Shown piece after piece: positions 3,374-37,467 of a stretch of 56,871 nucleotides of DNA. The stretch comes from Prorocentrum cordatum (taxonomy: Eukaryota), in contig CAUYUJ010000060.1 in the NCBI GenBank assembly GCA_963575745.1, positions 62,001 to 118,871 on the forward strand, written 5' to 3'. The position numbers were made by a program, and so were the translations under genes. Numbering within the stretch: position 1 is the stretch's first letter; each line of letters opens with the position of its first letter. The notes beneath the pieces were generated by a model that saw only the letters and a program-made list of their open reading frames with translations, was not told where the DNA came from and did not search any database.

Positions 3374-4045
3374 CCCTAACGTTCAGGTCCCTCTACAGGA
3401 TGGATATTTGACGATTTTTCCATGATCTTTTGACCATTTTGGAACACTGTTTGATTACACATGGTTCATTTCTCATTATTCGGAAGCTCTTTGATTTTTT
3501 TGGGGGCCAAGATCCTTTCATTTCTAATTGCTCTATCCTGGGCCTCTCCCTGGCCACTGGGGGGTCAGGAACAATGAGAAACGAGCGCACTTAGAAATGA
3601 GCACGATTAGAAATGAACGACGTGCATATTTTGTTGTTCGTCCAGAAGCCGCGTGTAAGGGGACATGCCCGGCCTGACCCGAACGTTCCCCTCACGCTGC
3701 AGTCGGCCCAGCTTAGTAGGTCGGCCCTGCCAACTCAGGGGTATACCCTTGTGCCCTGTGCCTCGCGACCCGTGCTTCCCACATTCCTGCGGCAATGTGG
3801 CCCCCGGACGGGTCTTGTGTCCTCTCGCGTGTCCTGTCCAATCGAGTCCGACTGGTAACGCTCCCCGCACGCTCCAGTTTTCGGGGACTCGGGGCAGTCC
3901 TCGGAGCACGCCTCGGGCGGCTCCGACCTCCGGGACCTCCTCCTCCCCGTGCTGCCCCTCGCCGGCCCTGCCCCTGCACCGGCGGCGTGGCTCGGCAGCG
4001 GCTCGGGGGCCCCCCAAACGGGGTGGCGACCACAGCGTGCGGTGA

Positions 4046-4241
4046 TCGGGGAACAGAAAGTGACGTAAGCGTGAAAACTCAGAGGTCCGCGCAGATTTCT
4101 CGGATCGGCGCTGGGGCCCCCCCGGCGGCGCCTCCGTCGCCGCCCCCGCTCCGCGCGCCAGGGAGGGGGGTCCAGCGCCGATCCGAGAAATCCGCGCGGA
4201 CCTCTGAGTTTTTTATGTTTATGTGACTTTTTGTTCCCCTA
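4046..4241. mobile_element. MITE family B copy (~75-bp TIR, 5-bp TSD GGTGA)
   Basis: The left arm tcggggaacagaaagtgac...gaggtccgcgcagatttctcggatcggcgctgg is inverted to ccagcgccgatccgagaaatccgcgcggacctc...gactttttgttccccta. GGTGA occurs at 4041-4045 and 4242-4246. Confidence 0.85.
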
Positions 4242-5261
4242 GGTGAGTCGGTGGGGATGCGGGGTCACCGCGCGGTTTTGGGACTAGGGTCGTTCTCCGA
4301 GGACATCTCGAGCGGCAGGCGCCTCCAGGGTCCAAAGACCGTGCGGTGACGGACTGTGTGGTGAGGTCTCGGGGAATTTCGAGGTCACCGCACGGCCTGT
4401 CACCGCACCGTCTCGGGACTCCAGAGTGGCTCGGGGGGTGCCCGCCCATGCTCTTGGAGCTGCCAGCCGGTGCTCGCCTCTGCCGTCGAAGATGGGAGAT
4501 CGGCATAAACATTGAGTCGGGCATGTTCCTCTACAGGAGGAATATTCATATATATATATTAATTATATATATATATATCATATATGTATCATTGTTAAAA
4601 CGTAATATATATATACATGTATATATATTCCTTTATCCTATAAAATCACATCCGGAAACCCGCCCGGCAAATCCACAGCGGCCGGACCACGCCATCATAG
4701 TACCCCACAAAGGCGCACGAAGAGCCCAAAATGCCTCAAGAGGCCCCCGCTCCCTCTGCCAGACGCCTTCAAGTGGTCTTTTGGACCGGCCCCAAATGCA
4801 TCCAAAACCTTTTACGATGGCCTCATGGTGGCCCAAGACGCCCCCAAACAGCTTCAGAGCCTCCCCAAAACGGTCCCAACAAGGCCCCCGCACGGCCGCA
4901 GAGCCCTCCTAGACGTCCAAGATCGCCTCACAGCACGGCCGCAGAGCCCTCCTAGACGTCCAAGATCGCCGCACAAGCGGCTTCGAAGCGCCTTAAGACA
5001 GCCCCCCAATCCGAACCGAAGTCCTCCCTAAAGATCTCGACGGCGTCAGACGGGCCAGGAGCGCTTAAGCATGGTTCCAGAGGCCCCCAAGAGCCCCCCA
5101 AACGCCCCCAGCGGACCGAGGAGACTCTCAAGATCGCTGCAAGAGGCCCCCAGCACACTGTCAAGAAACCCCAAGCGTGCCAGAAAACTTTCCCAGAGCG
5201 CCATCCTCCTCCTTCTTCTCTTTCCCAACAGTTCCTCCGGGATTTCTTCAACAGCTGGGAG

Positions 5262-5770
5262 AGTCCGCAGCCCCGTCTCAAGGACGACGTTCTGTCAAAG
5301 AGTACACACGGCCACCCCCGTTCCTCTCATGTCTGCTCTGTTCTGTCTAAGCCGCATCGAGTCTAAGCGTGCGCGAGTGTGACTGCGAGCGCCCATCCGT
5401 GGATCTGGCTGCCCTACCCCTTTGTGAACGTTGTCTGGGTGTGGCCACGAACATGTCCAGGCGGGCCACGATGTATCGCGGACGCTTCTACAAAACTCCC
5501 AGCGGGCCCCCAAGGGTAAGATCCAATGCTTTTCCTTAGCTACTCATGTGATTCTCTCATTCTCGTCTTTCGGACTCCAGAGCGTCCCAGACAGACCACG
5601 AGGCCTCTATACGGCCCGACGAGGGCGCAAGAGAGCGCCCCGTCTCCAAGACGCAGCCCCGTCAAGGATTCCACGCGGCCACACATGTGCACACATGTCT
5701 GCATTGTTCTGTCTCAGCCGCATTCAGTCCACGCGTACGTGAGTTTCAATACGAGTGCTTCTGAGTGGAT
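5262..5770 (+). repeat. Diverged direct repeat (~370-bp period) in the Helitron 5' region
   Basis: 5262-5405 resembles 5632-5773 (gccccgtctc...cggccac...catgtctgc.tgttctgtct.agccgcat...gtggatctg). A 38-bp direct repeat also lies at 4890-4970. Confidence 0.75.
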
Positions 5771-5911
5771 CTGTCGCTCTTGGCCTCAGTGATTGTCGTT
5801 CGGAGTGGCGCAGCCCCAGTAGGAGTTACACACAGCGGTCCAGACCCCGTGCTGACACTACTCCACACAACAGCGCAGGTGTCTGCTCCCTACCCCTACC
5901 CACCTCTCTTT

Positions 5912-5932
5912 CAGTACCCATTTAGGCTCAAT
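5912..5932 (+). promoter_or_regulatory. Relict dinoflagellate spliced leader upstream of RepHel
   Basis: cagtacccatttaggctcaat matches DinoSL ccgtagccattttggctcaag at 17/21 and ends 11 nt before the ATG at 5944. Confidence 0.55.
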
Positions 5933-5943
5933 CGTTCAGCGTT

Positions 5944-8311
5944 ATGTTTGCCCGGTTGCCGTGGCGCCACGTGGCTGCGTCCACGGCGGTTGCAAGCGTC
6001 GCTGTGAGTCATAACGACTCCCCGAGCCGCACTCCGCCTGTCATCGCTGCGCGGACCGGGCTTTGGACATTACGCCATGCCCGATTCCTGACGCAACCAT
6101 CCCTGGTTTTGTGCAGCCCGAAGGCCGCAACACTGCAATGTTCTGCGTGCCAACAGCACTTGCCTCGAACAGATTTCAGCGACAACCAAAGACCCAGATC
6201 CACAAGGAAGTGCCACGCTTGCGCCGCCGGCGCTAACCCCTCCGACCCTCACACCACATTCTCTTGCGCTGCTTGCGGTGACGTCCTCCCCCGGGATAGT
6301 TTCAGCACCAGGCAACGCCATGAGAAAACAAAAGTGTGCATCCAATGCATCGGTCGCGCTCATCCTCCTCGGTCGTCTACAGCTTACCAGTGCGCCAGCT
6401 GCAAAGCCACGAAGTCCGTGGATGCGTTCGTTCCTCGAGGCGTCCCTGGACCAGACCCTGTCTGCACTGACTGCACAGCGGGCGGCCGTTACACGGCGGC
6501 TTGCGCAAAATGCGGCCTCGTCCTCCCTCTGGACGACTTTGGCAATCATCAGCGCGAACATCTACTTGGAGTGTGCCGGTCCTGCGCCGAGCCTGGCAGA
6601 CCTTCTACCCAAATACATTCACTTTCCCTGGGCGCTCTCGCCAACCCTTGCGAACATTGCGGGGCACCACGCTTCCAGCGAGAAGTTCGAGGCTTCTGCT
6701 GTGCACAAGGAAAGTACGCCATTGACTTCTCGCAGTACTACCAGCAGCCAGGCGATGCCCTTCTGCAGCTGTACAGACGCACCTGGCCTGTGAAGACTAC
6801 GCACGGGAACCTCGTCCACGACGACGCCACGAATGCGCCCAAGCTTACGGGCTTCACTGCGGATTCTCGCCGCTACAACAGCCTGCTCAGCCTCGCCGCC
6901 CACGAGGTCCAGAGCGCCACACCAGAACGAGAAGTTCGATTCGGGGGCGTCCTCCGACCATCGTTCATCCGCATTCACGGCACCATGTACAGGAAGGTGT
7001 ACTCGGCTGCCGACTCTGGGCCAGTCCGCTACCTCGTGGTCGACGACCGTGAGCGTCGCACGTGCGCCCGAGACCACGGCCTCGACCTCTCCATCGTGTC
7101 CCAACTGGAGAAGCTCATCATACCGCACAATACACACATGCAGCACGTTCAGCACCTCAAATCAGTTTGGCCCCGTGCCTCTGAGGCTTCCGTCAGTCTC
7201 CGGTGGGACGAAGGTGTGCAAGAAGTTGCCGCAGTAGTGCAACAACGCCCCGACGCCATCGCCGAACCCAGGGCAGTGCGCTTCCGTTTGACGCCAGGCG
7301 CTCGCCCACAATACCTCTCGCCCTTGCACTGCCTTTACGAGCCTCTGAGCTACCCGCTGTGGTTCCCCTACGGAGGCCGCGGGTGGAGCACCGACGCCGT
7401 GTCAACTTCGGGCAACCGCGTGACGCAGATGTGGTGGTACCGCCAGCACCTCCTCCGGCAACCCCACATGCACGCGTGCGGGCGTCTGTTGAACGACTGG
7501 CTGATCAACATGTACTGCCGAATGGAGGACGAGAGGCTGTCGTTGGTCCGGAGGGAGCAAAGCACCCGCATTGCCAGCCGAAAGGATTTGTGCGAGGCCT
7601 TGGCCAACGAACATATCCCCCCCAGCGCAATCGGCACCAAGTACTACCTCCCTTCCACTGTCCCCGGCTCTCCACGCCATCTGAAACGACTCCGAGTGGA
7701 CGCATTGGAACTGGCACGCCGCAAGGGACCCCCTACTTACTTCATAACCCTTACCTGCAACCCCCACTGGCCAGAGATCCGAGAGGCACTCTCCCCTGGA
7801 CAAACCGCCGCCGACCGCCCTGACATCGCAGTGCGTGTCTTTCACGGACGTCTGGAAAAGATGATGGGCTACCTGAAGTCAGAGTTTTGCGGCCAACGTC
7901 GGTACGTCATTCGCGTGATCGAGTACCAGAAGCGAGGCCTGCCGCACGCGCACATCGTTCTCGCATGCACCCATCCCCCACCTACAGCCGAAGACGTGGA
8001 CGCCGTGATTTCCTGCGAGGTTCCGCCCGAACCTGGCAAGCTTCGTGACCTGGTCTTGCTCCACATGGTCCACCGCTGCAACCACTCCTGCCACCCTGAC
8101 GACCCAGCGCAGGAATGCGTCAAAGGGTGCCCTTGGCCTTTCAAGGACGACACTGACTTCGACGTTCGAGGGTGCCCCCACCACCGACGCCGCTCCTGCG
8201 GCCACACGTGCCCGAACTGCGTGCAAAACGCTCCTGCGTACGGGCGCCGGAATGTGTGCTGCAACCGGCTCGTCGTCGAGTACTGCCCCCGCATACTCTT
8301 GCTTTGGGAAG
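5944..8311 (+). CDS. Helitron RepHel exon 1: tandem zinc fingers and HUH Rep motifs 1-2
   Basis: Four CxxC-x20-CxxC units start at 6139, 6265, 6391 and 6502. Also present: Helitron-type CEHC...CCAQGK (6649), YEPLSYPLWFPYG, PGSPR, motif 1 YFITLTCNPHWPEI (7738), motif 2 VIEYQKRGLPHAHIVL (HUH at 7945-7953) and HMVH. Confidence 0.93.
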
Positions 8312-8727
8312 GACCGGCGGAACACCTCTCCGCGCAAAGTTCCTCATCCACTTACTCGCGCCCGCGAGCACCTTCCCCGCATTTCCCCACCTCTTTTCCG
8401 CAGACTTCCACTTCTCCCAATTCCTGCCCCCATGGGTCCCCCAATGTATGTTTTCATACATTATCAGCAAAAAACGCATGCCAAAAAAACTGCTTCCGAA
8501 GGGACATTTTTTGACACCCCATTTCCAAGCCCGCGCCTCCGCAAAACGTACGTTTTCGGCAGTCGAGGGACGCCCTGGAAGTCGGATTTGTAGTGCTTCC
8601 CCACCCATGGTTTTCTTCTTCCCTACTCCTTTTGGACCGTACGTTTCCCTAGTCCCTCCCTCTTCTTTTTCCCCCCTTAACCCGTCATGTCCACCTCCTT
8701 CCCGATGCGGAGAGGTGTTCGGCCAAG
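8312..8727 (+). other. 416-nt GA-AG intron with terminal inverted repeats (introner-like)
   Basis: Junctions are GAAG|GACC...CCAAG|GACAC. Removal joins LLLWEG to HANVKF and restores the frame. AAGGAC is repeated at 8309-8314 and 8725-8730. The 18-bp TIR (8316-8333 and 8707-8724) matches at 17/18. Confidence 0.85.
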
Positions 8728-11122
8728 GACACGCGAATGTAAAATTCGCAGGCAACGTGAACCTCTTCGAATACCTGTACAAGTACATCTTCAAAGGCCC
8801 AGACCACACCCAAAACCATATATCTGACGCCACGACAGACGAAATCACAGACTGGCAACGTGGACGGTATTTATGTGCAACAGAGTGTGCCTGGCGTATT
8901 TTCGGATACCAGACCTACGAACGCGCCCCCCACGTCATCTGCCTACCAGTGCACCTCCCCGGCGACGATTGGGTAACCTTTGCTGACGGCGGCGAGGCGG
9001 ACGCGCTCCAGACTACCGTTTCCCCTCTACAACGCTACTTTTTCCGGCCCACCGCTCCGCCTTTCAACGACCTGCTTTGCCACGAATACTTCGAATCCTT
9101 CATGGTCGCCAAGACGTGCCCGATTAGCCTCCGATGTTTCTTCCCGGACCTCTTCCCGGATGCGGCTCAACGACCTCGGGGCCCGGCAACTTTCACATTG
9201 GAGTGCCGGGTTCGTGGAGCCTTGCGCACATTCCACGTGCCGCCCGTCCTCGACGCAGCTCCAGGAGGCAACCAATTCTTTGTCTACTTGAAGCAGAAAG
9301 GCGAACATCCAGTTTGCCGCTTAGAGATGAAGTTTCCCCGCCAGAAAGATGTATTTTTCTTGCGCCACATGTTGCTCAACTACCCCAAGCGCAGTTTCGA
9401 GGAATGCAAGACTCACGCTGGACATAGATACCGATCTTATGAAGAGGCAATGATTGCTACGGGGCTTTTCACCCACGAAGACGAAACCTCTCGAGTAATG
9501 GACGAGCTGGTCTCGCTCCGATACACGGCCTCCCAACTACGGTTCGCTTTCGTCGTCCTCCTCGAGCAGGACGCCAAGCCCCGCACGCTGTACGAGAAGT
9601 ACGAGACACACTTGATGAAAGATTTCCTCGACAGGGGTCTCTCCAAGGACACCGCCCGCCAGGAGCTACAGCGAACGCTCAAAGCATCCTGGCTGGCCCA
9701 AGGCAACACTGAGGAAGCCTGGGTTCTACACTCCCCCGCTCACCCCACCACTGCCCGCGGCGCGCCCGTGCCCGACTTCACCCATTGCACCCCAGCAACA
9801 GCGGCATCAGAAGCCAACAGACTGTGGAACCTGATCAAACGAGACCCGGATCAGTCCGGGGCCGCCAAAGACGTCATCGACGGCGTGCGTTCTGGCGCGT
9901 CCAAGCTCATTTTCTGCCAGGGTCGAGCCGGCTGCGGCAAATCCACCCTCGCCAAGTACATCTCCTACTACGTGCGGTCCCTCGGCAAAAGCTGCGTCAA
10001 CGTGGCTTCAACGGGCATAGCGGCCTTAAACTTGCCAGATGGGGCCACCGCGCACTCGACTTTCAAGATCCCGATAGAAGACGCAGAGCACCTCACCTGC
10101 CGCCTGGGGCACTCCTCCGCGGGCGCCCTCACCATCGCGGCCGCTGCCGTCATTCAGTGGGACGAGTGGCCATCTTGCAAACGCGCTGCCTGGGATGCGG
10201 TCCTCGACTACCTCGCGCTCCTGCAGCAGGCTCGGCCAGACATTTACGTCCCAAAAGTCATCATCACCTACGGGGACTTCCGCCAGATACCGCCTGTTCT
10301 GAAGCACGCGTCTAGACAGGATGTCCGCGCCGCCAGCGTCACAACGTCGGCTTCGTGGCCCTCCTTCCGCACTTGGCAACTCCGCACCACGCACCGACAA
10401 ATCCACGACAGTGACTACGCTTCATGGATCGAACGCATCGGCCAGGGCGAGGTTCCGCACACGCACACCATTGATGGCGAACCCGGCTATATCGAGCTCG
10501 ACCGCTGCTCCGTGACCCACACCATGGACGACGCCATCACTCATTGCTTCCCACACATAAACGACCCCGCCGAGTGCGCCGATCGGAAGATTCTGACAGC
10601 AACGATTGAGGCGAGAAACACCTTTAACGACCGTATCCTGGATACTCTGACGCGCACTTATCTGCTGCACGAGTTCATCGCCAAAAGCTCGGACGCCATT
10701 GAATACGACTCCAACAACGACACCGTCGAAGATCACATCACCGCCGAGTTCCTCAACCTGCAGGACGAGAACGGAGTCCCCCCACACGCTCTCCGGCTCG
10801 TTGTTGGCGGCCTCTACGAGCTGATGAGAAACTTCAGTCCGTGTGATCGCTTGATGAACCACACGCACGTCGTGCTCAAATCGGTCTACGAGAAACACGT
10901 CCTCGTGGAGCGGCTCGATGGGGAGCAGTTTCCCTTGCCCAGATCTGCTTCCGCTGGGCACTGGGGCGGGGGGCCACCACCATCCGCCGACGACAGTACC
11001 CTGTGCGTCCAGCGTACGCTTCGACGTTCAACGGCTCGCAAGGCACCACGCTGGCCCGCTGCGTGGTCGACGTCCGCAGAAGCCCGTTTTCCCACGGCCA
11101 TCTCTACGTAGCTTTTTTTTTT

Positions 11123-11153
<31 letters not shown>

Positions 11154-11426
11154 GTGTTTTTTTTTTTTTTTTTTTGTTCTCTTTTTTTTTTTTTTTTGTT
11201 TTTTTTTATTTTTTTTTTTTGGAGCCGGGAGGTGGAGACTCGAACGACCATCCGCATCTTCACACTGCCGGAACGCTGCAGCACTGCTGGCAAAGCCCTC
11301 ACCAAAAACGTGGTGTGGCCTGAGTTCTTGCTCAACGATTCTGCCCCATCGGTTGCCCGGAAACGACCGGCGGCGAGTTCCCGCGACCAGCCTGTTAGCA
11401 GCAAGCGCGGGGCCCGACGCCGCTAG
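8728..11426 (+). CDS. Helitron RepHel exon 2: Rep motif 3 and Pif1-like SF1B helicase; frameshift near 10942 and T-tract at 11113-11220
   Basis: Motifs: YLYKYIFKG (8772), GRYLCATECAWRIFG, Walker A GRAGCGKST (9921), VASTGIAA...GATAHSTFKIP, WDE, GDFRQIPPV, PPHALRL. After a 1-nt frameshift it reads RRRQYPVRPAYASTFNGSQG...FSHGHLYVA. After the T-tract it reads SR...TKNVVWPEFL to the stop at 11424-11426. Confidence 0.9.
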
Positions 11427-11681
11427 GATGCCTTCTTCCTCCCTTGCCTTCGCGTGGGCGCAAAAACAGACCATCGCCGTTCCTCCGTCGTCGCCCTCCC
11501 TCCTCTCTCCCCCCGCGTGCCGCCGCCCCGCCAGCCCTGTCGGCCCGCCAGCTTGCGGGGCCATTTCAATTCTCTCGTTGCCGCCACGCAGTGAGCATTT
11601 CGGCTGCCAGGCTCCGCCGAGCGTTCGTCTTTTCCTACACTTCTCGCACGTTGGGCCCCCTTCCCTCCCACCTGCGCCGCG

Positions 11682-12530
11682 ATGCCTACCGTCTTCGCCA
11701 AGCCCGCTGCCGCCCCCAGCGTCATGCGCAGGCCAGCTGGCAACGCGGTCCTCGACACGTCCGTGCCGGTGCGCGCGCAGCCCGACGTTGGGGACCGCAT
11801 CCGCGCGTCCCTGTACACGGTGAACGTCACGATCGAGATGGTCGACACGCCGACGAAGGCCAACGCGGGTTCTCGCCTCGCGCTGTCCGACGGCATCAGC
11901 ATGCGCAGCGGGGCCCCCGCCAACCGCCACGGCCTCACCACTACAGTGAAGAGGGCCACCGACCTGCTGAAGTTGAACCAGCCACCCAACGGAGTATGCG
12001 TTTCCGCTGAAGGGCTCCAGCCACCGCAGGCCGGGCATAACCCTACCTCCGGGAGGAGTTGGGCCTGGGTGGTGGCCGCCTATGGCGACAGCGCCAGAGC
12101 CGCCTCCCTCGCCACGGAGTACGTGGCGACCCGCGCCGTCGACATCATCACCCACTGCTTCTTGAAGGCCGACCTCCACGTCCCGGCGACTGACACCCAG
12201 TGCGCCTGGTCCGCCAAGTCCACGCTGCTGAACAATCGGGTGTCCATCCGCCGCACGGGCTCCATGACGAATGGCCAGACGTACGAGCTCAACGACCTGA
12301 TCAATTTCGTCTACACGATCCACCCGAACGTCCCGCCCAAGGTGGCCCGCGCACTCAAGGACTTCTTCGACGCGTACCCGTCCATCATCACGGAGGGTGC
12401 AGGCCCGGCCCTCGTAGGCCCCGCCTCCACGACCGTGCACCACAGCACTTCCGCTGCGGCCGCAGCGCCGAAGCGCGGGGTGAAGCGGCCCCCGGCGCCC
12501 AGCGCGGCGAAGAAGGCCAAGAAGCGCTGA
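11682..12530 (+). CDS. Helitron cargo ORF, 282 aa, unknown function, basic NLS-like C-terminus
   Basis: ATG-started intact ORF with visibly G/C-ending codons and non-repetitive protein sequence. It ends PKRGVKRPPAPSAAKKAKKR and lies 255 nt downstream of RepHel on the same strand. Confidence 0.75.
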   Translation: MPTVFAKPAAAPSVMRRPAGNAVLDTSVPVRAQPDVGDRIRASLYTVNVTIEMVDTPTKANAGSRLALSDGISMRSGAPANRHGLTTTVKRATDLLKLNQPPNGVCVSAEGLQPPQAGHNPTSGRSWAWVVAAYGDSARAASLATEYVATRAVDIITHCFLKADLHVPATDTQCAWSAKSTLLNNRVSIRRTGSMTNGQTYELNDLINFVYTIHPNVPPKVARALKDFFDAYPSIITEGAGPALVGPASTTVHHSTSAAAAAPKRGVKRPPAPSAAKKAKKR

Positions 12531-12634
12531 TGCTCCAGGCCCAGGCAACTCCAGCGCAAGTTTTTGAATGCCGCGCTGGCTCCCCGTAGCCCGCCGCGTT
12601 GCGCGGGCTGTCATTTTCGTGAGTTCTTGCGGTT

Positions 12635-12920
12635 CCCGCTCGAAAACCTTGCCCCCGCGTCGCGGCCCATTACGGTTCTGCCGCGCGCCCGCTGGCACTT
12701 CTTTGCTTCGCGATTCCCTTATTCAGCAGACTTCCACGTTTTGCAAATCTACGCCCCTGGGTTCGCCCAGTGTATTTTTCCATATATTCGCAGCCAAAAA
12801 CCGAGTGTCAAAAAATCGGGCCCCCAAGGCGTATTTCTTGACATCCCGGTTTCGCACCCGCGCCTCAGCGAAACGGACATTTTGTGCCCCCCAACGATAC
12901 CGTGGATGTCTGATTTAAAC
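12635..12920 (+). repeat. Diverged paralog of the RepHel intron interior
   Basis: Shares colinear blocks with 8314-8590: cgcgcccgc..gcac, gcagacttccac, tgggt.c.ccca.tgtat, caaaaaa, ttgaca.ccc, cccgcgcctc.gc.aaacg.ac.ttt, gtc.gattt. Confidence 0.75.
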
Positions 12921-15858
12921 CGTGCTTCATATTTGATCATCCCCTTCACGACTCATATTTCGGCCCCGCCTTTTCTTCTGATATTTTTGTTTGTTTTTTC
13001 TTTTTTTTATTTGGTCTCTTATGTTGTTTTCTTTTTTGGTTTTGTATTCGGTTTTTTTTGTTTGTTTCCGTCATTATGAGGCCTGTTTAGTTCTTACTTC
13101 TCTCTTCTTGGGGGTGTTTTTTTGTTTTTTTCTGCTGAGCCTCGTCTCTGCTTTTGGTGTCTTTCAGCGGAAGACGGCGTCGACCTCAGAAGGGAATCAT
13201 CGCCGGTCGTCCTTCGTCCGTCGTCGTCTCCCTGTCCCTGGCCCTGTCATCCCCTTCCGGGGCATACGGCCTCGCGCATCCACAACCGTCCGCTAACATC
13301 CTGCCGCTCCAGAGGCAACCGTGCGAACGGTTTCATCCGTATCCCACCTCTTCTTCTTCGTCGTCCTCACCCTCTACCTCCTTCCCCTGCCTCCACCTCA
13401 TGCCCCCTCCTCTTCCTCGTGCCTCCTCTTCCTCCCGCCACCTCCAACTCCTCCTGTCACCTCCGCTGTTTCTTGCTGCGTTTCCACTTGCGTCAACCAG
13501 CCAGATCTTTCTCCCCGGACCCGCCCCCCAGGCCCCCATGAGAGCCCACAGGACCCCAAAGGACAACACAGGACTTCACAGGTTGCCACCGCACGCAACA
13601 AGCTTTTCAGTGGGTTGTCTTCCGATTCGGCAAGACCGCGCGTCCCCTTACAAAATATCGCCGGGCATGTACTTCTCTTCTGCCCTTGACACCCCCGCCT
13701 CCTTCAATCACTTGCGTGTAATCAAAGCGCATCGTACACTAACGATCCACCCGGAAGCGTCATTGCCTCTTCGCCTTCTCGCCAATATTTTCGACGGCTT
13801 TTCTCGCTCGGCCGTCACGTTTTGCCGAGATCGGTCTTCCGCGCCAAGCAACACCCCCGCACATTATGCGTTGAATCCCCGCCTCCGTCAGACAGGATCG
13901 GAATGCGCCCAGAGCTATTGCATCCTTTCGGTGTGCCCTACTCGCACACCGCCCTTTAGACCCCACGAGCATTGCATCCATACCGCAAGTCTGGCTTGCG
14001 CATGTCGAATGTTCTTGAAGTGGCTTCCGCCATTCCGCCGCCCCCCAGAAGAACTTCCGACCATCGTGGAAGATGCATGCTGGCCATCGGCCCCGCCCGC
14101 CATTGTGCCTGGGCTGTGGGAGATACCACGTTGGGGCATACAAGAGTCGTTGTAGATGCCTTTCAAGGCCCTCTGGAGGACGCTAGGGAACATCTGGATA
14201 ACGCTTATGAGAGTTATTCCAGGTCCCTGGAGGCCTCTTCCGGCACCTCGATACCTTCTTGAGGTCCTTCGGGGCGCCTCCGGGGCCTCTGCAAGGCTCG
14301 AGGACCCGTTTTAGGACAGATAGCTCCTCATGTGAAGTCGTCTTCTTCTCTTTCGCCCCTCTAGCATCCTCTTGGGCCGCTTTGGGATATTTGGACATCT
14401 CTAGAGCTCCTCTTCGACCCCCAAAAAGGGATGCAATACACTGCAGGGACGCCCACTCATCTCACACACCTTTGCGCACCTACCCAGCAGAGTTGAGCGG
14501 ATCTCACACACATTCCGAATGTGACTCCGGAGCCATCTGGGTCGAGCGTTTCAGCCCCTGTCTCCTTCCATCATCTTTCGCATTTCGACCTGCTGTGCCA
14601 TCGAGCGCTTTGCGCAAGCCCTCCGCCACCCCATCACATTGCGTCTGGCACTCGAGAAGAACCCTAAAGACCCCTACCAGCCTAACGATCCCGTCAGGAC
14701 CTCGCACCATGTTACAGAACCACACAACAAAAACACTTCTCACTGGAACATCAAAACCCCACACGCCCCACAGCACTCTACAGGGCCCCTCTGGACCTCC
14801 CAGGCTCCAATCGGAGAACACAAGACCCTTCAAGCCTTCCAGGCCCCGACAAGCTCACCGTACTTCCCAATACCCACACACACCTTTCGCACCCTACGGG
14901 ACGCCACAGGACCGCATAGGACAACAATGATTCCAAAGCACCCCAATATTACCTGACGCCCCACCGGACCTCACTGAACCGTGTGCCCCATCACAGGCAT
15001 CAAAAACCCAACGCGCGTCCACATGATCTCATCACGCCACGCGGGAGACCGCAGGACCGAACACGACTGCAGAACCCAAACGTGCCCACATAGAACACCA
15101 AGGTGCCCCCCAGAACACCAACGATCACCCACAAAACTAGACCCCGCCAGACCCCACCGAAGTTTCAGTCCCGACGAATCCCACAAAAGCCGACAGGATT
15201 CCGTAAGACCCCAGAACCTCGACGCGACCACAAAAACACCAAGGTCGCCCCCACGACATTTCAAACCTACATCTTGCAAAGCTTCCGAAGTCCACACAGG
15301 ACCACGCAGCCGAAGTGAGAACCCGGCGAACTCAAGACCCCCAAAACCGAGAATGCACCCGACTATACCCAATAAGACCTTTCCGGACCCCACAGACCCC
15401 GCACACCTTTTCGCGGAGCAGATGTTTCTCCACTGGCGGCCACGCCGTCACGAGACAACACCATCTCTTATATACTTTAGGGCGCTGCCTCTGGGTGCGT
15501 GGAGTCGTGCCTCTCAGCCCCTGTCTCCTCATCCGCGTTGTTACCTCCACTTCCTCCATATCGGCTCTCCGCTGTACCATCCAGACTGTTAGGTCACCTC
15601 CTCCGCCGTAATCCCACCCTGTCCTTTCGTTGCTCTCCCTCTCTTTATCTTCCACCCTCTGCTCACTTCTCTCCGTCATCGCCGCTCCGCGCACCTACCC
15701 CCTACACCACGCGCCTCTTGCACTTCACCCCGCTCCCTTCCCATAATCGAACAATCCTCTCCCGTCCTTCCTTCTCCCGCGTCTGCTACGCTCCTTCTCC
15801 TACTGTTTCGCACGCCTGTGGCCCTTCTTCGGGTTGGCGACGATCCCATTCGACAGCG

Positions 15859-17319
15859 ATGCTGGACTCCAACGAGCAAAAATCAATACGGTCAGCCTCG
15901 TCTGAGGGCGTACTGGGCGTTGTTTGCGACAAAGACCTTCTCACGCATTGGCATTTGATGTTGCCCTGCCGCAGTTGTATGAGTTACGCTGCGTACAAAG
16001 ATATGTCTCACTTCCCCATCTGTTTTCTCGACGGCAGCTGTTCTTACAAAAAACACGACCGCGACATTTTCTTGAACGCCGTGCAAAAACGGAAGAATGG
16101 ACGAAGAGACATGCACCATTGGATTCCGATAGACAAGTTGCCTGAAGCATTCCACCTACCCAAACTCGCAGACACCATCCAGCCCGAAGTGGACCATGAT
16201 TTCCGCACGCGGAAGCTGAATCACTTTCATCCGATCCTTGACAATACAAGCGCCACCAAGCACTACCTACTGATGGCGAATAAGAAGCAACCCTTGACGA
16301 CGTTGGCGCTGTTCATTTTTATGTCTACTTTGTACCTTAATGAGGGCCACTACCTGGTCACGGTCTTAGCCGTTTATCACTGGTTAGCGCACCAGAAGCA
16401 ATCTCGACAAGAAATCGTCGCCAGCAGCGCTGCCCGGGACAAGCTCCAAAGCCGCCTCCTGGACGTTCGACGGCACATGTCCGCAGACGAAAAACTACCT
16501 GCCTTGATCTCCACAGACGCCTACAATGTGCAGCGCTTCTATGATGCTTTGGTGCTTTGTGAGACTCTGTACGGACGACAGCCAGATGCCGGCTACCACT
16601 TGCCGAGCTTCACGCCCGGCGACGATTCGAAACAGTTGTTGGGCGAAGGCGTTGGCACCAAGCCCCACCGCGTGGCTGTTCGCATGCATCACATGGCCCA
16701 GACCTTGACGGAACACCAGGCTACCCTGAACGGTAGCCCTGTGCTCATGGTTCAGATGACGAAGACGCTTCTCGCCACCCACGCTTCGTGGCTCCCGTAC
16801 CAAGCTCAACTGGTGTATAAACGATTCTTTGAGAGTTCATTCGGCACACTCAATTGGCACCAATCAATTATGTCTGAGCTCACATTTATGGAACACGTCG
16901 GAGACGGTGACTTCTACTTTTTGAGACACCTGTGCCCGGCGGCCTTCGACATGTACAATGCTCTCGCTGATAGGGAACCCACTGATAGTGGCAAAAGAAC
17001 AGTGGCTGCCAACGTCACGCAAGCAGAAAGGGAGCTTGGCCGCACGCTGGTGCAGATGCTGACGTCGCGGCAACACTCCATGGGCCTGCATTGCCGCGTT
17101 AACGCGTTGTTGGGCATGGACCTCATGGATTTTGATGAGACACAATACACGATCTGTGAGAATCGAACTTTCCTGTGGGGGTCCCGCATGCGCAAGAAAA
17201 TGGCGACAGACACGTGGCTCCACCAAATGCGCTCCGCGCACAGATCCTGGCACAGAGAAACCCTACTCCCCTTCGTGTGGGGGGCCGTGGCCTTGCGCGA
17301 CGGCAAGCGTTCGAGGTGA
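15859..17319 (+). CDS. Helitron cargo ORF, 486 aa, candidate aGPT-PPlase1 / 5-hmdU DNA kinase helical-domain homolog
   Basis: Intact ATG-started ORF with complex sequence. Ordered motifs DHDFRTRKLNHFHPILDNTS (16192), STDAY (16510), GVGTKPHR (16648), PYQAQ, SELTFMEHVGDGDFYFLRHLC (16873) and QYTICENRTF (17143) parallel the family consensus as I recall it. Coding status is likely; the family call is tentative. Confidence 0.6.
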   Translation: MLDSNEQKSIRSASSEGVLGVVCDKDLLTHWHLMLPCRSCMSYAAYKDMSHFPICFLDGSCSYKKHDRDIFLNAVQKRKNGRRDMHHWIPIDKLPEAFHLPKLADTIQPEVDHDFRTRKLNHFHPILDNTSATKHYLLMANKKQPLTTLALFIFMSTLYLNEGHYLVTVLAVYHWLAHQKQSRQEIVASSAARDKLQSRLLDVRRHMSADEKLPALISTDAYNVQRFYDALVLCETLYGRQPDAGYHLPSFTPGDDSKQLLGEGVGTKPHRVAVRMHHMAQTLTEHQATLNGSPVLMVQMTKTLLATHASWLPYQAQLVYKRFFESSFGTLNWHQSIMSELTFMEHVGDGDFYFLRHLCPAAFDMYNALADREPTDSGKRTVAANVTQAERELGRTLVQMLTSRQHSMGLHCRVNALLGMDLMDFDETQYTICENRTFLWGSRMRKKMATDTWLHQMRSAHRSWHRETLLPFVWGAVALRDGKRSR

Positions 17320-17626
17320 TCCTATTGTCTTTCCTGTGAGCCACGCCTGTCTAGACTTCCGACCCCGCCTGCTTACGCCAACGCCGTTGCTGTTCGTGGG
17401 GCCACCGTGCCATCGCTTTCTCTTCGCAAGAAAAGTCACTCCTCATCCTTCTCCTCCTCCTCCGCCTCCTCTCCCATCCCCTCGCCCTCGTCGTCGCCGT
17501 CGCCGCCCCCAAACCGCCCTACCCAACCTGTAGTCTAGGCGACGAAGACAGGTCGCCGGGGGCAGGGCCTGCGGCGAGCGCGACGGGAGCGCCCGCGCTT
17601 GCCGTCTCATCGACGAAGCCATGGGC

Positions 17627-17666
17627 CAAGATTTAAGGCGAAGCGGAGCGAGCCTTCAAAATCTTG
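17627..17666 (+). other. Candidate Helitron 3' terminal hairpin
   Basis: caagattt-aaggc-(gaagcggagcga)-gcctt-ca-aaatcttg, followed by T and TA-rich sequence. Confidence 0.6.
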
Positions 17667-17694
17667 TATATGTATATACACATACATACAGATA

Positions 17695-17891
17695 CTAGAA
17701 CCACGCGCGCGCTTTGCGCGCGCTTAGGTTCTAGCTCGGCTTCACGGTCGAACTTTGAAGACCTCTACTTTGTGGCAAATGCCTCTGGGGCACCCAAGAA
17801 CTACGCCAACGGCCCATGGGACTTCAAAGACCTCCTGAGGCCATCCCACAGCGACCTAAGAATGGGCCAAGAAGTCGTCGTCGTCGTAGAA
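17695..17891 (-). mobile_element. Candidate short non-autonomous Helitron, tail-to-tail with the large one
   Basis: The minus strand ends gcgcgcgcaaagcgcgcgc-gtggtt-CTAG|T (GC hairpin plus CTAG-T) and begins TTCTAC near 17891. TA/CA microsatellite flanks both sides. Confidence 0.5.
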
Positions 17892-18077
17892 CTGTGTATG
17901 TATAAGCATATGTAAATGTATATGCATGTGTAAATGTATGTGTGTAGGTGTATGTACATGTGTGTAGATATGTGTATAGTTTCAAATGTATATGTGTAAG
18001 TACACGTAAATGTATGTGCATGTGTATACAAATATATATATATATATATATATAGATATCTGTACATACATATAGTC

Positions 18078-19060
18078 GGCCCTTGGGCCGTCTTGGCGCC
18101 CTCTTGGGCTATCTTGGGGGCCTCTTGGGAGCGTCTGCGGTTCGCTTGGGGAACTCCTGGGGACCTCTTGGACAGTCTTCGAAGCCGTGAAGGCCCCAAA
18201 ATGGTGTACGTTTCGCCTACAGGAATGTAGCGAACTCGGTCTCTTGGGATCCTCTTGGGAGTGCTCTTGGAGGCCTCTTGGGACGACTCGGAGCCTTCTT
18301 GGACCTCCTTGGGGCCATCTTGGGCAGTCTTGGGCGCCTCGGGGCCTTCTTGGGCCTTCTCGGAGCCCGTATTGGGGCTACCTTGGGGCGACTTGGGCCG
18401 CCCTGGGGCCGTCTCTTGCCCCCCCCCCTCTTGGGCTGTCTTGAGGGCCTCTTGGGAACGTCTTGGGCTCTCTTGGGCAAGTCTTGGGAGCCGCTTGGGC
18501 CGTCGTCGAAGCCGTGAAGGCCGAAAAGTCGCATACGATAGAAATGCACGTCGTCCTCAAGAATTCAACGAGTGTGGCGTCTTGGGGCCCTCCTGGGGCT
18601 GCTCTTGGAAGCCTCTTGGGACGCCTCGGAGCCTTCTTGAACCGTCTCGGGGCCATCTTGGGCCGTCTCGGGCGACTCGGGGCCTTCTTGGGCCGTCTTA
18701 GGCGCCGTCGTGGGGCCAACTTGGCCGTCTTAGGCGGCCCTGGGGCCGTCTTGGCGCCCTTTGGGGCTGGCTCGGTGGGCTCTTGGGAACGGCTTGGGCT
18801 GTCTTGGGGAAGTCTTGGGATCCTCTTGGACCGTCTTGAAAGCCGCGAAAGGAAAACTCGTACATGCTAAAAATGTGCGTGTCCCCATTGGAATGTAATG
18901 ATTTGGGCCTCTCGGGTCCCTCTTTGGGAGTGCTCTGGGAGTCCTCCCTGGGCCGTATTGGGCAGCTCGGGACCTCCTTGCACCGTCTTGGGGGCTTCTT
19001 GGAACCCTCTTGGCTCGTTTTGGCACCCTCTTGGCCTCTCCGGGCCGCCTCTGGGGAGCG
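18078..19060. repeat. Degenerate tandem array (~330-bp period) built from ~11-bp GGGCCTCTTGG subrepeats
   Basis: An aagccg(t/c)gaa anchor recurs at about 18182, 18509 and 18840. Confidence 0.75.
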
Positions 19061-20639: not shown

Positions 20640-21270
20640 CCACCTCATCGTTCTCAAAATGTGTACCTCGTCTCAGCGCCGCGAACGTCGTCGTAAACAT
20701 GTGCATGAGCTTCTCGGACGGAAGGCGGGTCGTTTCCAATATGTGGTTCTCACATTCGCGCGACGCATACTCCTCTTCAACAGCTGCATGAGTTTCACGG
20801 GTGGAGGGCGGTTCCTTTTCAAAATGTGGCCCTCGCTTTAGCACCGCGCACATTCGTCTTAACAGCCTACACATGCTTCAAGGATCCTCATGGCTGACGT
20901 CCCAGAAATGGTATTTTGTGCGATTTAGGATAGCCAAGGCGCGACAGTCACGTTGATTCGCCGTGTTGACGTCCCAGAGATGATGTCCTGCCGCGACTTA
21001 GGGTCGTCAGGTCGCAACAGGAACGTTTGTTCGCAGCGTTGAAATATAAGGCGTGGTGCTCCGGCTCGGTTGCCGACTTCCAGACGAGTGTCTTCCAGAC
21101 GGTTGCCGTGCCAAGCATCATCGCGAGCCCAAATCCCACTGCGCAGGCTGCAGAAACTGATCCCCAGGGCAACTCGCCAAGCTCTGTCACGTGTTCTCGC
21201 GAAGGCCGGGCCCGCTGCTTTGAATATGTAAGACAAGTGCGAGGGGTGCCGGGATCGAGAAGAATCGAGA
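20640..21270 (+). repeat. Repeat family C copy with degenerate 83-bp internal units
   Basis: cagcgccgcg..catt units are followed by gacgtcccagaaatggt and gggtcgtcagg.cgcaacag, as in the copies at 21600 and 29865. Confidence 0.65.
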
Positions 21271-21599
21271 TCGTACTTCGTCCCAGGCTTGCGTTGCTCG
21301 CTCGCTCGCTCGCCACTCGGGCTGACAGAGCCACGATTGAAGCTGAGCCGCCCTCTAGTGATGAGGGCATGGCCTTGTTCCTCATCCTCCTCCTCCTCCT
21401 CCTCCTCCTGTTCCTCCTCCTCCATCTTGCTTCCTGCTCTTCCTGCTCCTCTTCCTGCTCCTCCTCCTCCTCTTCCGCTCCTCCTCCTCCTCCTCCTCCT
21501 CTTCTTATTCCTGCTCCTGCTCCTGGTCCTCCTCCTCCTCCTCCTCCTCCTCCTCCTCCTCCTCCTCCTCCTCCTCCTCCTCCTCCTCCTCCTCCTCCT

Positions 21600-22630
21600 C
21601 CCTGTCTGTCGCACCCCGAGATGTGTCGGCGGGGCGGGCCAGGCGTTTCGCCTGCGACTTCCTCACCACGTACGATCCTGAAGCTGATAACTGTTTAGAA
21701 TACCTTCACGGATGGAAGGCGGGCCGTTTCATTACGTGGCTCTGGCCTGAGCGCCGCGCACAATCCTCTTTAAGCTTGCCAGAATTTCACGGATGCTGAC
21801 CGGGTCGTTTGCAAAAAGCGGCTCTCGCAGTGGCGCCGCGCACATGCGTCTTGAAGATTGCAGGATTTCACAAGTGGACGGCGGCTCCATTTCAAGATAT
21901 GGCTCTCACCTCCGCACCGCGCATATTCCTCTCTTCAAAGTTTACAAGATTATTCTGGATGGCGGGCGGGTCATTTTCAAAATGTGGCTCTCCCTTCAGC
22001 GCCGCGCACGTTCGCCTGGAAAATTTGCAACAACTGCACGGGTTGAGAGTGGGCCATTTGCAAAATGAGTCTCTCGCATTAGCACCGCGCACAGACGTTT
22101 TGAAAGCTTACAAGACCTCCACGGATAAAAGGCGGGCTCCTTTTCCAAATGTGGCTCTCGCCTTAGCGCCGCACGCATTCGCCTTTGAAGTTTACAAGAG
22201 CTTCCCGGATATAGCTCTCTCTCTCTCTCTCTCTCTCTCTTCAGCGCCGCGCACATTCGTTTTAACACTTGCAAGAGTCTCGCAGATGGAGGACGCATAA
22301 TTTTCAAAACGTGACTCTCGCATCAGCGCCGCGCACATTCGTCTTCGAAGCTTATAACAACTCAACGGATTCGGAGTGTGGACGTCGCAGAAGTGGTGTT
22401 ATGGCACAGCTTAGGACTGTCAGGGCGCAACAATCACGTTGATTCGCAGTTTCGAAGTCCCAGGAATGGTTGTCTGGCACGATGCAGGGTCGTCAGGACG
22501 CAACAGTAAAATTGATTCACGACGTTGTAACCCCAGAGGTGGTGTTCTGGCACGATCGAACGTTCTCAGACGGTTATCCTGCAACGGTGCACTGCCAGCA
22601 GTGCAAATAAATCCATGCAGGGACCTATGA
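21600..22630 (+). repeat. Repeat family C copy (about 7 degenerate 83-bp units)
   Basis: Head ctgtcgcac...gcgtttcgcctg.gacttcctcacca, then repeated gtggctctcgc..agcgccgcgcacattcg. Confidence 0.8.
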
Positions 22631-26089: not shown

Positions 26090-26780
26090 AGACCCCGTCG
26101 CACCCAAGACGTGCTAGTAGCACGGTCTGGGCGTTGCGTCTGAGACCTCCTCACCATGAGCCATCGCGAAGCTTGAAGGTTCAACAATTACACAGGTGAA
26201 GGGGGGGCGGCTTTCAAAATTGGGGCGTTTGCCTCAGCGCCGCGCACAGTCGTCTCAAACGTTTGCGTCAGCTACAATGATGGTAAGAAAGTCGTTTTCA
26301 AAGTGGACCTATCGCTTTAGCGCCGCGCACATTCGTATTAAAAGCTTGCAGCAGCTACAAGGATGGAGGCTGGGTCATTTTCAAAATGAGGGCTCTGGCG
26401 TTCGCGCCGAGCACATTCGTTGTTTCAGTATGTGAACAGCTGCAAAGGTGGGGGGCGGTTCTTTTCAAAATGGGGCTCTCGCTTGCGACCTCCTTGAGAC
26501 AAATGGTCGGAGACCTGAACAGTTGAAACATTTGCACGGGTGGGGGGCGGCCCCTCTTCAACGCGGGGGCTCTCGCCTGAGACTCCCTCGAAGTGCATGG
26601 CCAGAGTTGCAAAGTCGTGCCATCGTTGCACACATGGGGGGTCTTTTTTTCCAAAACGGGGACCACCTCGTGGAACTGTATGCTCACACCTTGGCGCAAG
26701 CCACGTCGCCGCACGGATGCAGGGCAGCTCCTCTGCAAAAACGGAGCTCTCGCCCGAATGGCCAGCCCGTGGCCCACATC
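26090..26780 (+). repeat. Repeat family C copy (degenerate)
   Basis: Head ccgtcgcacccaagac...tgagacctcctcacca and cagcgccgcgcaca units. Confidence 0.7.
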
Positions 26781-29074: not shown

Positions 29075-29864
29075 CCCAGACTCGGAGCGACTCGGAGGAG
29101 TCGAAGCGAGCCCCGCGGTCCCCGGCGGCGCGGCCCTCCCCCCGGTTCCGGGGGCGGCGGCCCCTGCCCCCGGGGGGACGGGGGAGGACCCCCCGAGGAG
29201 AGCGGGGCTGCAGGGCAACCCCCCTCCTCCTCCTCCTCCTCCTCCTCCTCCTCCTCCTCCTCCTCCTCCTCCTCCTCCTCCTCCTCCTCCTCTTCCTCCT
29301 CAGGGGGGGGGGAGAGAACGACGAAACGGCGACGGCCGACGGGGGACTGCGACTGAGAACTCGCACTGGGCGGGGACGGAGGAGGGGGAGGAAAGTGGCC
29401 GCAGCTGCGGCGGCAGACTGCGGGCACCAGACTGGCTTGCCCTCAAGGGTGGGGGAGGCAGGCTAGCACTGCAGCACACACATCCGACGAGACATCCTGC
29501 TATGAGACATCCTGGAGCACATTAACCAACGCTCCTCGCTGGTCCCAAAGGGGCCCCGAGGGTTTCTGCGGGTCCCTGGGGCCACAGGAGGATAAGAAAC
29601 TTCCGCGGGACAACTGCTGGCAGGCCGAACTCTTGTTTGATCCACCTACTGTAAGAAGGTTCCTCCTCCTTCTCCTCTTTCACATCCTCCTCCTCCTCCT
29701 CCTCCTCATCCTCTTTCACACTTCTTCCTCCTGATTATCCTCCTCATCCTCCTCCTCCTCCTGCTCCTCCTGCTCCTCCTCCTTCTCCTCCTCCTCATCC
29801 TCCTCCTTCTCCTCCTCCACCTCCTCCTCCTCCTCCTCCAATCCTTCTCCTTTTAGATAACTCC

Positions 29865-30860
29865 ACCCTGTCGCACGCCGAGACCAGTTTTTATGGCGGG
29901 CAGGGCGTTTCGCCTGAGACTTCCTCACCATTTATGATTCTGAAGTTTAAAGAGTGACAACAGTTTCACAAATGGAGGGCGGGTCGTTCTCAACATGTGG
30001 CTCTCGCCTCAGCGCCGCGCACATTCGTTTCGCCACATTACAAAAATGTAACGGATTGAGGGCTGGTCATTTTCAAACTGTGGCTCTCGCCTCAGCGCCG
30101 CGCACATTCGTTTCGAAAAACTGCAAGAATATAGCGAGTTCAAGCCTGGACGTTTTCAAAATGTGGCTCTCGCCTCAGCGCCGCGCACATTCGTTTCAAA
30201 CATTGAGAGTTTCACGGATTGAGGGCTGGTCGTTTTCAGAATGTGGCTCTCGCCTCAGCGCCGCGCACATTCGTTTCAAAGATTTGCAACAGATTCACGG
30301 ATTGAGGGCGGGTCGTTTTCAAAATGTGGCACTCGCCTCAGCGCCGCGCACATTCGTTTCAAATATTTGCAAGAGGTTCACGGATTGAGGGCGGGTCGTT
30401 TTCCAAATGTGGCACTCGCCTCAGCGCCGCGCACATTCGTTTCAAACATGTGCAAGAGCTTCACGGATCGAGGGCGGGTCCTTTTCAAAATGTGGCTCTC
30501 GCCTCAGCGCCGCGCACAGTCTTTTTTACAAGTTGCAAGAGTTTCACTGGTTCCCATGCTCAACGTGCCAGAAAATGGTGTTTGGAAGGACTCCGGATTA
30601 TGCGGGCGCAACAGTTACGTGAATTCGTTGTCTTGAAGTCACAAAAAAGGCGTTCTGGCACGAGTCTGGATCGTCAAGACGCAGCAGACAGGTGGATACA
30701 TGGCGTTGAAATCACGAGGACAATGTTTTTGGCACGCTTCAGGATCTTCCAACTGTTGTCTTCCAACAAGGCAACTCCCTCAATGGAAATGAACCGTTGT
30801 ATGGGGCCTATGGAGAGGGAGCTTGGAAGGACGGTGAATGCCAACAGCGTCGATGACGCT
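29865..30860 (+). repeat. Repeat family C copy with 7 well-conserved 83-bp tandem units
   Basis: tgtggc(t/a)ctcgcctcagcgccgcgcaca recurs at about 29996, 30079, 30162, 30242, 30325, 30408 and 30491. Confidence 0.9.
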
Positions 30861-37000: not shown

Positions 37001-37467
37001 AACAGGCGACCTGGGGAAGCGAACCGTATCTTCAAGCAGTTGCATCGGATATGGAGCCGGACTTCAATTGGAAAGAAACGAAAAAAAATATATATGTATG
37101 AAAGTTGTGTCCTGAACAAGCTCCTGTACTCTTTAGATTATGTTTGGCTTCTGAAGGCAGACCGTGCGCGTTTAGACGCCTTCCACTGCAAATGCTTACG
37201 TCGTTTGCTGGGAGTTCGTCCTTCTTTTCACGGGTTAGCAATGCAGTTGTGCTTCAAAAAGCATCCGCTCAACCTCTGTCGAATATGTTGCTGGCCAGGC
37301 AAGTTGCATCGTACAATAAAATTATGAATTCGGGATGCCCGGCGCTTGTCAAAGCCGCTGTCTGTAATGATGATGGAACCCCCAAGAGATGAGCTCGGCG
37401 CCGAAAGAGGGGCCGCCCCCGCCAGCAGTGGGCGAGTCAGGTATACAAGTTGTCTCAGCATGTATAG
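34048..37467 (+). pseudogene. LINE ORF2 (AP endonuclease plus reverse transcriptase) with stops and frameshifts
   Basis: EN motifs: VATWNVEG, LQETH, SAYAPH, LGDFNA, QIDHVL. RT motifs: KAAGPDDI, NYRPISLLS, QFGFRP, LLDWAKALD, GIAKGWPLS, YADD (36761), YLGG, and C-terminal RGRPRQQW. Stops at 34750 and 36617; frameshifts near 36575, 37225 and 37390. Confidence 0.92.

Follow-up and report, generated by a model that had tools for sequence, protein, structure and literature searches.

The DNA analysed here, a 56,871-nucleotide (nt) stretch of the dinoflagellate Prorocentrum cordatum (contig CAUYUJ010000060.1, positions 62,001 to 118,871 of the forward strand), is referred to below as the window. Downstream of a Helitron RepHel gene it holds an open reading frame (ORF) at 15859-17319 (+), the product of which was named P0001. 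This ORF is established as an intact gene of a conserved protein family, with the predicted helix-hairpin-helix (HhH) DNA-glycosylase fold and with a statistically supported profile and motif similarity to the HMUDK_hel proteins of phages (PF18723; formerly alpha-glutamyl/putrescinyl thymine pyrophosphorylase, or aGPT-Pplase, clade 1), to which the family would be related as a new, eukaryotic clade. A preliminary description, made by eye from the sequence, had proposed this homology, along with the ideas that the gene is Helitron cargo and that it counters silencing. The homology call was essentially right; the two other ideas are still conjectures.

Coding status of the ORF

The ORF comprises 486 codons on the plus strand without internal stop, exactly as first described. 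Its stop-free frame extends further upstream, to 15499, and amounts to 606 codons in all; with a stop frequency of about 0.04 per codon, such a frame is by our own arithmetic not expected by chance. The upstream part is of low complexity, and four homologues (P0003, P0017, P0024 and P0049) begin at the same Met, so that 15859 is the likely start codon. GC content at codon positions 1, 2 and 3 is 0.55, 0.40 and 0.67, respectively, which is a coding signature. Near-identical sequence was found in DNA runs from eight studies, marine metagenomes among them, no RNA run being among the matches listed, and the two differences listed between the window and the contigs of other runs within the ORF, H30Y and R395H, are both non-synonymous.

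The whole window was also scanned for relics of the spliced leader, using its 21-nt core sequence and allowing up to six mismatches. Only two places were found, at 45455-45475 (-) and 5912-5932 (+), and none of them lies near 15859. A second ORF of similar length (47337-48794, 485 amino acids) was considered as a paralogue of P0001 and rejected on comparison.

A conserved family without a name

An exhaustive phmmer search with P0001 against 1.84 billion representative proteins returned 52 proteins at E ≤ 1e-3, of which 33 reached E ≤ 1e-10 and 8 reached E ≤ 1e-30. A word-indexed search for homologues of near-equal length gave none with P0001 itself and only P0050 and P0008 with the alignment; scans of collections of metagenome contigs and viral contigs revealed no relatives of the ORF. 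Identity among the full-length relatives is 28 to 39%, and the family consists of two subfamilies with sharply conserved motifs: K-L-N-N..I-L-D-x-T-S, N-E-G-x-Y, Y-G-R-Q-P-x-x-G-Y, G-x-R-x-H-R, P-Y-Q-x-Q, A-G-P-G and I-C-E-x-R-x-F. The window copy agrees with the family at every one of the 36 alignment columns in which conservation is 85% or more. The Cys at residue 433 is present in every one of the 28 family sequences in the alignment at that position.

Three regions of the family are less uniform or are peculiar to it. An N-terminal extension conserves Pro53, Cys55, Phe56, Cys61, a His near position 65, and His86-x-Trp88; this Cys/His cluster (residues 53-90, 16015-16128) is absent from the phage proteins and is a possible metal site, judging from its residues. 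Between the G-x-G and Cys-Glu motifs lies a variable acidic insert. Several members carry basic C-terminal tails, which suggests a nuclear location.

Predicted fold

A single-sequence AlphaFold2 model of P0001 was not usable (mean predicted local distance difference test score, pLDDT, 36.4). With the family alignment of 53 rows, AlphaFold gave an all-helical model with a pLDDT of 91.7 and a predicted template modelling (TM) score of 0.91. The modelled protein has two helical lobes and the G-x-G hairpin by which the HhH-GPD glycosylase superfamily is recognised. When this model was compared with 48,161 representatives of the PDB using VIA-align, rows 1 to 23 were exclusively proteins of the HhH DNA-glycosylase fold, OGG, Mag1, AlkA, MutY and ROS1 among them; a phage 5-phosphomethyl-deoxyuridine (dU) glycinyltransferase was also within these 23 rows.

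Foldseek searches pointed to the phage family more specifically. Against BFVD, a collection of predicted structures, the first rank was taken by a phage protein annotated 'Pplase1 alpha-glutamyl/putrescinyl thymine pyrophosphorylase clade 1' (E = 8.8e-3, probability 1.00, TM 0.33/0.37). Three proteins annotated '5-hmdU DNA kinase (helical domain)', 5-hmdU being 5-hydroxymethyl-dU, followed at ranks 27, 47 and 50, with TM values of 0.21 to 0.48 compared with about 0.1 for most other rows; they stem from phage phiRSL1, a Nodularia phage and phage SP10. No BFVD match reached E = 1e-3, and none was found at E ≤ 1e-3 against the PDB. The structural check suggested in the preliminary description thus yielded the anticipated family as top viral match, though not at that threshold. 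According to the model, P0001 would have a helical, HhH glycosylase-like fold resembling that of HMUDK_hel members.

Profile-level relationship to HMUDK_hel

For comparison at the profile level, 11 diverse phage HMUDK_hel proteins (alignment A4) and 8 proteins of ADDT (PF18724; aGPT-Pplase clade 2; alignment A5) were assembled. An initial profile-profile comparison, A1 against A4, gave E = 0.052. When the family alignment was trimmed to the query columns, hhalign aligned it with the 11 HMUDK_hel proteins at a score of 33.7 (P = 0.0018), along a Viterbi path covering residues 115-435. This path pairs motif 1 of the two families, then G-Y with T-G-A-Y, P-Y-Q with A-Y-Q, G-x-G with G-P-G, and C-E with C-E. 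The reversed template, used as a control, scored 15.9, and 131 column-shuffled templates scored 14.1 on average (standard deviation 2.4, maximum 22.6), none of them reaching 33.7.

The score can be calibrated on an accepted relationship: HMUDK_hel against its sister clade ADDT scored 34.5 (P = 7e-4). The new family against ADDT remained in the noise, with 13.8 (P = 0.61). Alignments of the two subfamilies, from which the window protein had been excluded, scored 35.6 (P = 6e-4, in the region of motif 1) and 29.4 (P = 0.006, from GPG to CE) against HMUDK_hel, and both about 13 against ADDT. The two subfamilies match HMUDK_hel separately, and in the right order. The hhalign probabilities are low, 1 to 28%, and identity to HMUDK_hel within the alignments is 11 to 12%.

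We conclude that the similarity exceeds chance with moderate support, and that the relationship appears to be true but very distant. The distance between the family and HMUDK_hel seems to be roughly that between HMUDK_hel and ADDT, and the family should thus be regarded as a new clade rather than as a member that the Pfam model would catch. The case for homology is made by the agreement of several independent lines, namely the fold, the controlled profile-profile comparison and the collinear motifs, and by no single number. In this sense the central claim of the preliminary description, a distant homologue of the aGPT-Pplase clade 1 / 5-hmdU DNA kinase helical family, is supported with moderate strength.

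Motifs and key residues

Residues invariant in the 11 phage proteins are R18, F44, N46, R49, D52, A126, G196, F198, D206, G-P-G, C297-E298 and K301. Those with aligned counterparts in the family are Asn46, Asp52, Tyr127 (the Tyr after A126), GPG and Cys-Glu; at K301 the family has a nearby Arg. Six pairs of motifs had been matched by eye. Placed on the profile-profile alignments, four of these pairings stand (motifs 1, 4, 5 and 6), one holds in part (motif 3) and one is wrong (motif 2).

Motif 1 (residues 112-131, 16192-16251) aligns its D..K-L-N-x..D-x-T-S with the phage D-P-I-L..R-F-x-N..D-R-x-T, in the register first given, and its D128 occurs in 21 of 22 members. The phage T-G-A-Y, which had been matched with 'ISTDAYNV' as motif 2, is in fact aligned with G245-Y246, an invariant pair within YGRQPxxGY (residues 238-246, 16570-16596), where P242, G245 and Y246 are each found in 21 of 21 members. 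Motif 3, G-x-G-T-[RK]-P-H-R (residues 264-271, 16648-16671), is specific to the family, with H270 in 22 and R271 in 24 of 25 members; its G..KPHR does align with the 'TKHR' of phage M6, as had been noticed, but the set of 11 phage proteins shows no conservation of this stretch.

In motif 4, W-x-P-Y-Q-A-Q (residues 311-317, 16789-16809), PYQAQ is aligned with the AYQ of phage G-P-F-M-A-Y-Q. The hairpin motif G-x-G (motif 5, 16897-16911) keeps G348 in 19 of 20 and G350 in 21 of 21 members and is aligned with the invariant phage G-P-G; it reads mostly A-G-P-G in the family and G-D-G in the window, the middle residue being mostly P, with D, N, G and S also occurring. Motif 6, I-C-E-x-R-x-F (17149-17172), is aligned through its ICE with the invariant phage C-E..K, and has C433 in all 28 members, E434 in 20 and R436 in 25.

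Comparison with named systems

Known HMUDK_hel proteins include gp55 of Pseudomonas phage M6, gp72 of Delftia phage PhiW-14 and the C-terminal domain of SP10-type 5-hmdU DNA kinases. They share with the family the all-helical, HhH glycosylase-like fold, as far as models tell, and a collinear series made up of an N-terminal Asn..Asp-x-[TV]-[ST], Gly/Ala-Tyr, Tyr-Gln, G-P-G and Cys-Glu. They are both the best viral structural match of the family and its only significant profile-profile match. The family differs from them in being about 150 residues longer, with its own Cys/His-rich N-terminal extension and the acidic insert mentioned above; the ORF, moreover, is eukaryotic and escapes the PF18723 model. 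Phage HMUDK_hel loci have thymidylate synthase and Nmad5 as neighbours, whereas the window ORF has no kinase or thymidylate-synthase-like gene adjacent to it.

ADDT proteins are amino-acid:DNA transferases, for example M6 gp51 and PaMx11 gp46/PUGT (PDB 8z2m). Their hallmarks, D-x-D-P-x-Y, E-R-R-H-F-R-G and a metal-binding E-T pair, have no counterpart in the family, in keeping with a profile score at noise level. The HhH-GPD DNA glycosylases (EndoIII, MutY, OGG, AlkA, AGOG) and the DUF2419/QNG1 proteins of queuine salvage have no sequence or Pfam match to the family, which differs from the glycosylases in lacking a conserved Asp after the hairpin and in having an invariant Cys.

Points that weigh against the relationship

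Several results speak against a tie to HMUDK_hel or against the role discussed below. No Pfam family matched P0001 at E ≤ 1, and a scan of 22 family members at E ≤ 10 gave scattered noise without any match to HMUDK_hel or ADDT; the aGPT-Pplase match in Pfam that the preliminary description had envisaged was therefore obtained neither for P0001 nor for these relatives. The library itself performs as it should, since it detects HMUDK_hel at 3.1e-55 and ADDT at 1.4e-46 in phage M6. PHROGs gave no match to P0001 at E ≤ 10, and sequence and profile searches of the PDB returned noise only. Four of the phage-invariant residues, Arg49, Gly196, Phe198 and Asp206, are not kept in the family. The family is apparently a previously unnamed clade of dinoflagellates, but the evidence for that host is confined to the two spliced-leader relics of the window.

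Two further points concern genomic context and function. Among the 41 ORF translations of the window that were scanned there was no kinase, dUMP hydroxymethylase or TET/JBP protein, bearing in mind that eukaryotic genes need not cluster. On the phage side, M6 gp55, which belongs to clade 1, is dispensable in vitro, nor does the part of PMC8989533 consulted establish a biochemical role for clade 1.

The last point is the window copy itself. Its codon 16222-16224 encodes His at position 122, a position that Asn occupies in each of the 11 phage proteins and in 18 of the 22 members of the family; this N-to-H change, spotted in the preliminary description, is real and unique to the window copy. Together with other departures from the phage consensus, it had led to the suggestion that the protein is a non-catalytic binder. 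That suggestion is weakened by the complete set of conserved positions, Cys-Glu included, and by the variable middle residue of G-x-G, which is normal in the subfamily, so that N122H is the only unusual feature left.

Proposed function

In dinoflagellates, a large share of thymine is replaced by 5-hydroxymethyluracil (5hmU). In phages, thymidine hypermodification involves the phosphorylation of 5-hydroxymethyl-dU in DNA by kinases, of which HMUDK_hel forms the helical domain or a helical partner. Taking the fold, the profiles and the motifs together, we consider it probable that the ORF encodes a nuclear protein that handles DNA bases, of the HhH DNA-glycosylase fold and of a clade nearest to HMUDK_hel / aGPT-Pplase clade 1. 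That its substrate is 5hmU, that it is catalytic and that it resides in the nucleus we infer from homology and from the chemistry of the host DNA.

Work on related phage proteins indicates how such a protein might act. The clade 2 enzymes are amino-acid:DNA transferases acting on 5-phosphomethyl-dU, which is made by the kinase 5-HMUDK, and mutation of their conserved Cys or of a nearby Glu abolishes activity, as stated in the portion of PMC8989533 consulted. In PUGT, the base is flipped and Cys247 contacts the target nucleoside, according to the excerpt of PMC11472151 available to us. By analogy, P0001 would bind duplex DNA through its G-x-G hairpin, and 5hmU or a derivative would be flipped into a pocket whose walls are formed by the conserved residues Asn/Asp, Gly-Tyr and Tyr-Gln. 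The invariant Cys and the adjacent Glu could then act as in the sister transferases, with thiolate attack on C6 activating the C5 substituent; alternatively, the flipped base might be presented to a partner enzyme.

Dinoflagellate 5hmU is reported to be made after replication by TET/JBP enzymes, to be enriched in repeats and to be linked to transposon silencing, and in the consulted parts of the two reports (PMC11572971, PMC11071213) this writer and this link to repeats and transposon silencing are all that is described so far. The searched text of both mentions neither Helitrons nor the present family. For the fate of 5hmU after its synthesis, and for its recognition by proteins, the family provides a concrete candidate reader or modifier, one with a specific relationship to phage proteins that act together with 5hmU-DNA kinases and transferases.

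A full-text search of about 8.4 million papers, which did not extend to the founding 2013 analysis of the phage family, found no literature linking the family to dinoflagellates or Helitrons. As far as we could find, and leaving that analysis aside, this would be the first described eukaryotic clade of the phage family; the 2013 analysis reportedly mentions some eukaryotic versions.

A broader scheme, to which we give little credence, is that dinoflagellates go beyond 5hmU. A eukaryotic pathway would then phosphorylate, substitute or read chromosomal 5hmU, with the family as one of its parts and with the thymidine-hypermodification toolkit of phages as its source, by inheritance or acquisition; copies lying beside or within transposons, the Helitron of the window being an example, would rewrite the silencing 5hmU mark.

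The Helitron neighbour and alternative explanations

The RepHel gene lies at 5944-11111 (+) in two frames, of which 5944-8514 matches Rep/Helitron_like_N (5.5e-43) and 8172-11111 matches PIF1 helicase (2.7e-42). At the frame switch, 8172-8514, the two ORFs overlap and both translations are of low complexity; a frameshift, an insertion or an intron is possible. Two bases after the RepHel stop begins a poly(T) tract of about 110 nt (11113-11220), which breaks the continuity from RepHel to the genes downstream. A minus-strand retro-insertion with its poly(A) tail could account for this tract, as could a microsatellite, and the assemblies of other runs break there. Between the tract and the ORF lies a probable further gene (11682-12530, +), an ORF of 282 amino acids that has a basic C-terminal tail, matches no Pfam family and differs from its neighbours in codon bias.

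In the preliminary description the ORF was called 'Helitron-borne'. If so, its product would be cargo of the RepHel element, by means of which the element could read or alter the 5hmU that it carries itself, for instance so as to avoid being silenced through this base. Such an arrangement would fit the reported silencing of dinoflagellate transposons by 5hmU (PMC11572971, in the part consulted), and the position of the ORF, on the same strand and 4.7 kb downstream of a genuine RepHel, is compatible with it. This position is, however, the only support for 'Helitron-borne'. Neither termini nor a second copy were found in the window, and dinoflagellate gene arrays usually have their neighbouring genes on one strand, as described in the consulted part of PMC11572971. 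It is also compatible with cargo that the GC content at third codon positions (GC3) of the ORF, 0.667, is close to that of the two RepHel frames (0.689 and 0.686) and unlike that of the intervening ORF (0.887). This unrelated-looking ORF and the poly(T) tract abutting the RepHel stop lie between the two genes and count against cargo.

The candidate 3' end of the element lies downstream of the ORF. Beyond the ORF stop, by 230 to 420 nt, there is a cluster of three hairpins (17540-17745; hairpins at 17553-17604, 17627-17666 and 17695-17734), with a DNA folding energy of -57.8 kcal/mol (z = -6.0). The hairpin singled out in the preliminary description does exist, at 17627-17666 and 308 nt past the ORF stop, but nothing marks it as a Helitron terminus: the CTAG downstream of the hairpins has an A rather than a T as its next base and stands 29 nt from that hairpin, and no element ends could be recognised. 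The 40-nt hairpin has no exact match in viral contigs and no second copy in the window.

The 5' side and the copy number speak against cargo. The spliced-leader-like 21-mer at 5912-5932 (+) has four mismatches and lies 12 nt upstream of the RepHel ATG, which suggests, from its sequence and place, that this RepHel copy has passed through a trans-spliced mRNA and is mRNA-derived. In the best DNA run, contig depth over 5551-17441 is flat and single-copy-like, at about 17 to 36, with bumps of 63, 119 and 59 at 6585-8135, and a single contig of 5,328 nt covers 11934-17436; simple and satellite repeats take the flanks of this stretch to depths of thousands. No contig joint skipping the region from RepHel to the ORF was seen, although contigs cannot show absence. 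On balance, we regard cargo status as unlikely.

We find it improbable, too, that P0001 is a divergent enzyme of the HhH superfamily without a special tie to phage 5hmU chemistry, such as a base-excision glycosylase, possibly one that removes 5hmU or damaged bases, or a nucleoside hydrolase of the DUF2419/QNG1 kind. The likeness to HMUDK_hel motifs would then be convergent or superfamily-wide. No glycosylase or DUF2419 protein was among the 50 best PDB rows of Foldseek, while Pplase1 tops the BFVD list, and the Pfam glycosylase and Q_salvage families do not match. HMUDK_hel is characterised by the Asn/Asp motif near its N terminus and by the Cys-Glu pair, and we know of no glycosylase that has them. 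In HhH-GPD glycosylases the catalytic Asp stands about 20 residues after the hairpin. The family alignment shows no conserved Asp between G350 and residue 400, where L358, P360 and F363 are the conserved positions, and a classic glycosylase mechanism is therefore unlikely.

Finally, that the ORF is a decaying or chance frame without function in this genome is very improbable, for N122H and the non-synonymous nature of the only two between-run differences, which might be taken as signs of decay, are outweighed by the 606-codon open frame, the intact set of 36 conserved positions and the near-identical sequence in runs from eight studies.

Other features of the window

RepHel and the ORF occupy a single-copy stretch flanked by satellite-like repeats at 17959-18992 and 4000-4516, for which each of the four runs gives contig depths in the thousands. 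Within this single-copy stretch, contigs of three runs have an extra C after 10937; three runs skip 188 nt at 12967-13156 and have three other letters instead; and two or three runs show small deletions at 13194-13238. These differences are assembly errors or strain differences.

Besides RepHel, the sole domain matches in the window are to a LINE-like (long interspersed nuclear element) endonuclease and reverse transcriptase, at 34.3-37.3 kb. They correspond to retrotransposon remnants at 34297-37324 (+), where weak matches to endonuclease/exonuclease/phosphatase and reverse transcriptase domains are spread over three ORFs. The other spliced-leader match, at 45455-45475 (-), is a clear relic with two mismatches (none expected in shuffled sequence); like the match upstream of RepHel, it points to a dinoflagellate host, and it may be the trace of a minus-strand retrogene. 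Tandem repeats of about 83 nt are dispersed at 20688-22403, 26201-26391 and 29863-30608; they have a conserved GC-rich core, and up to eight units follow one another at 29.9-30.6 kb.

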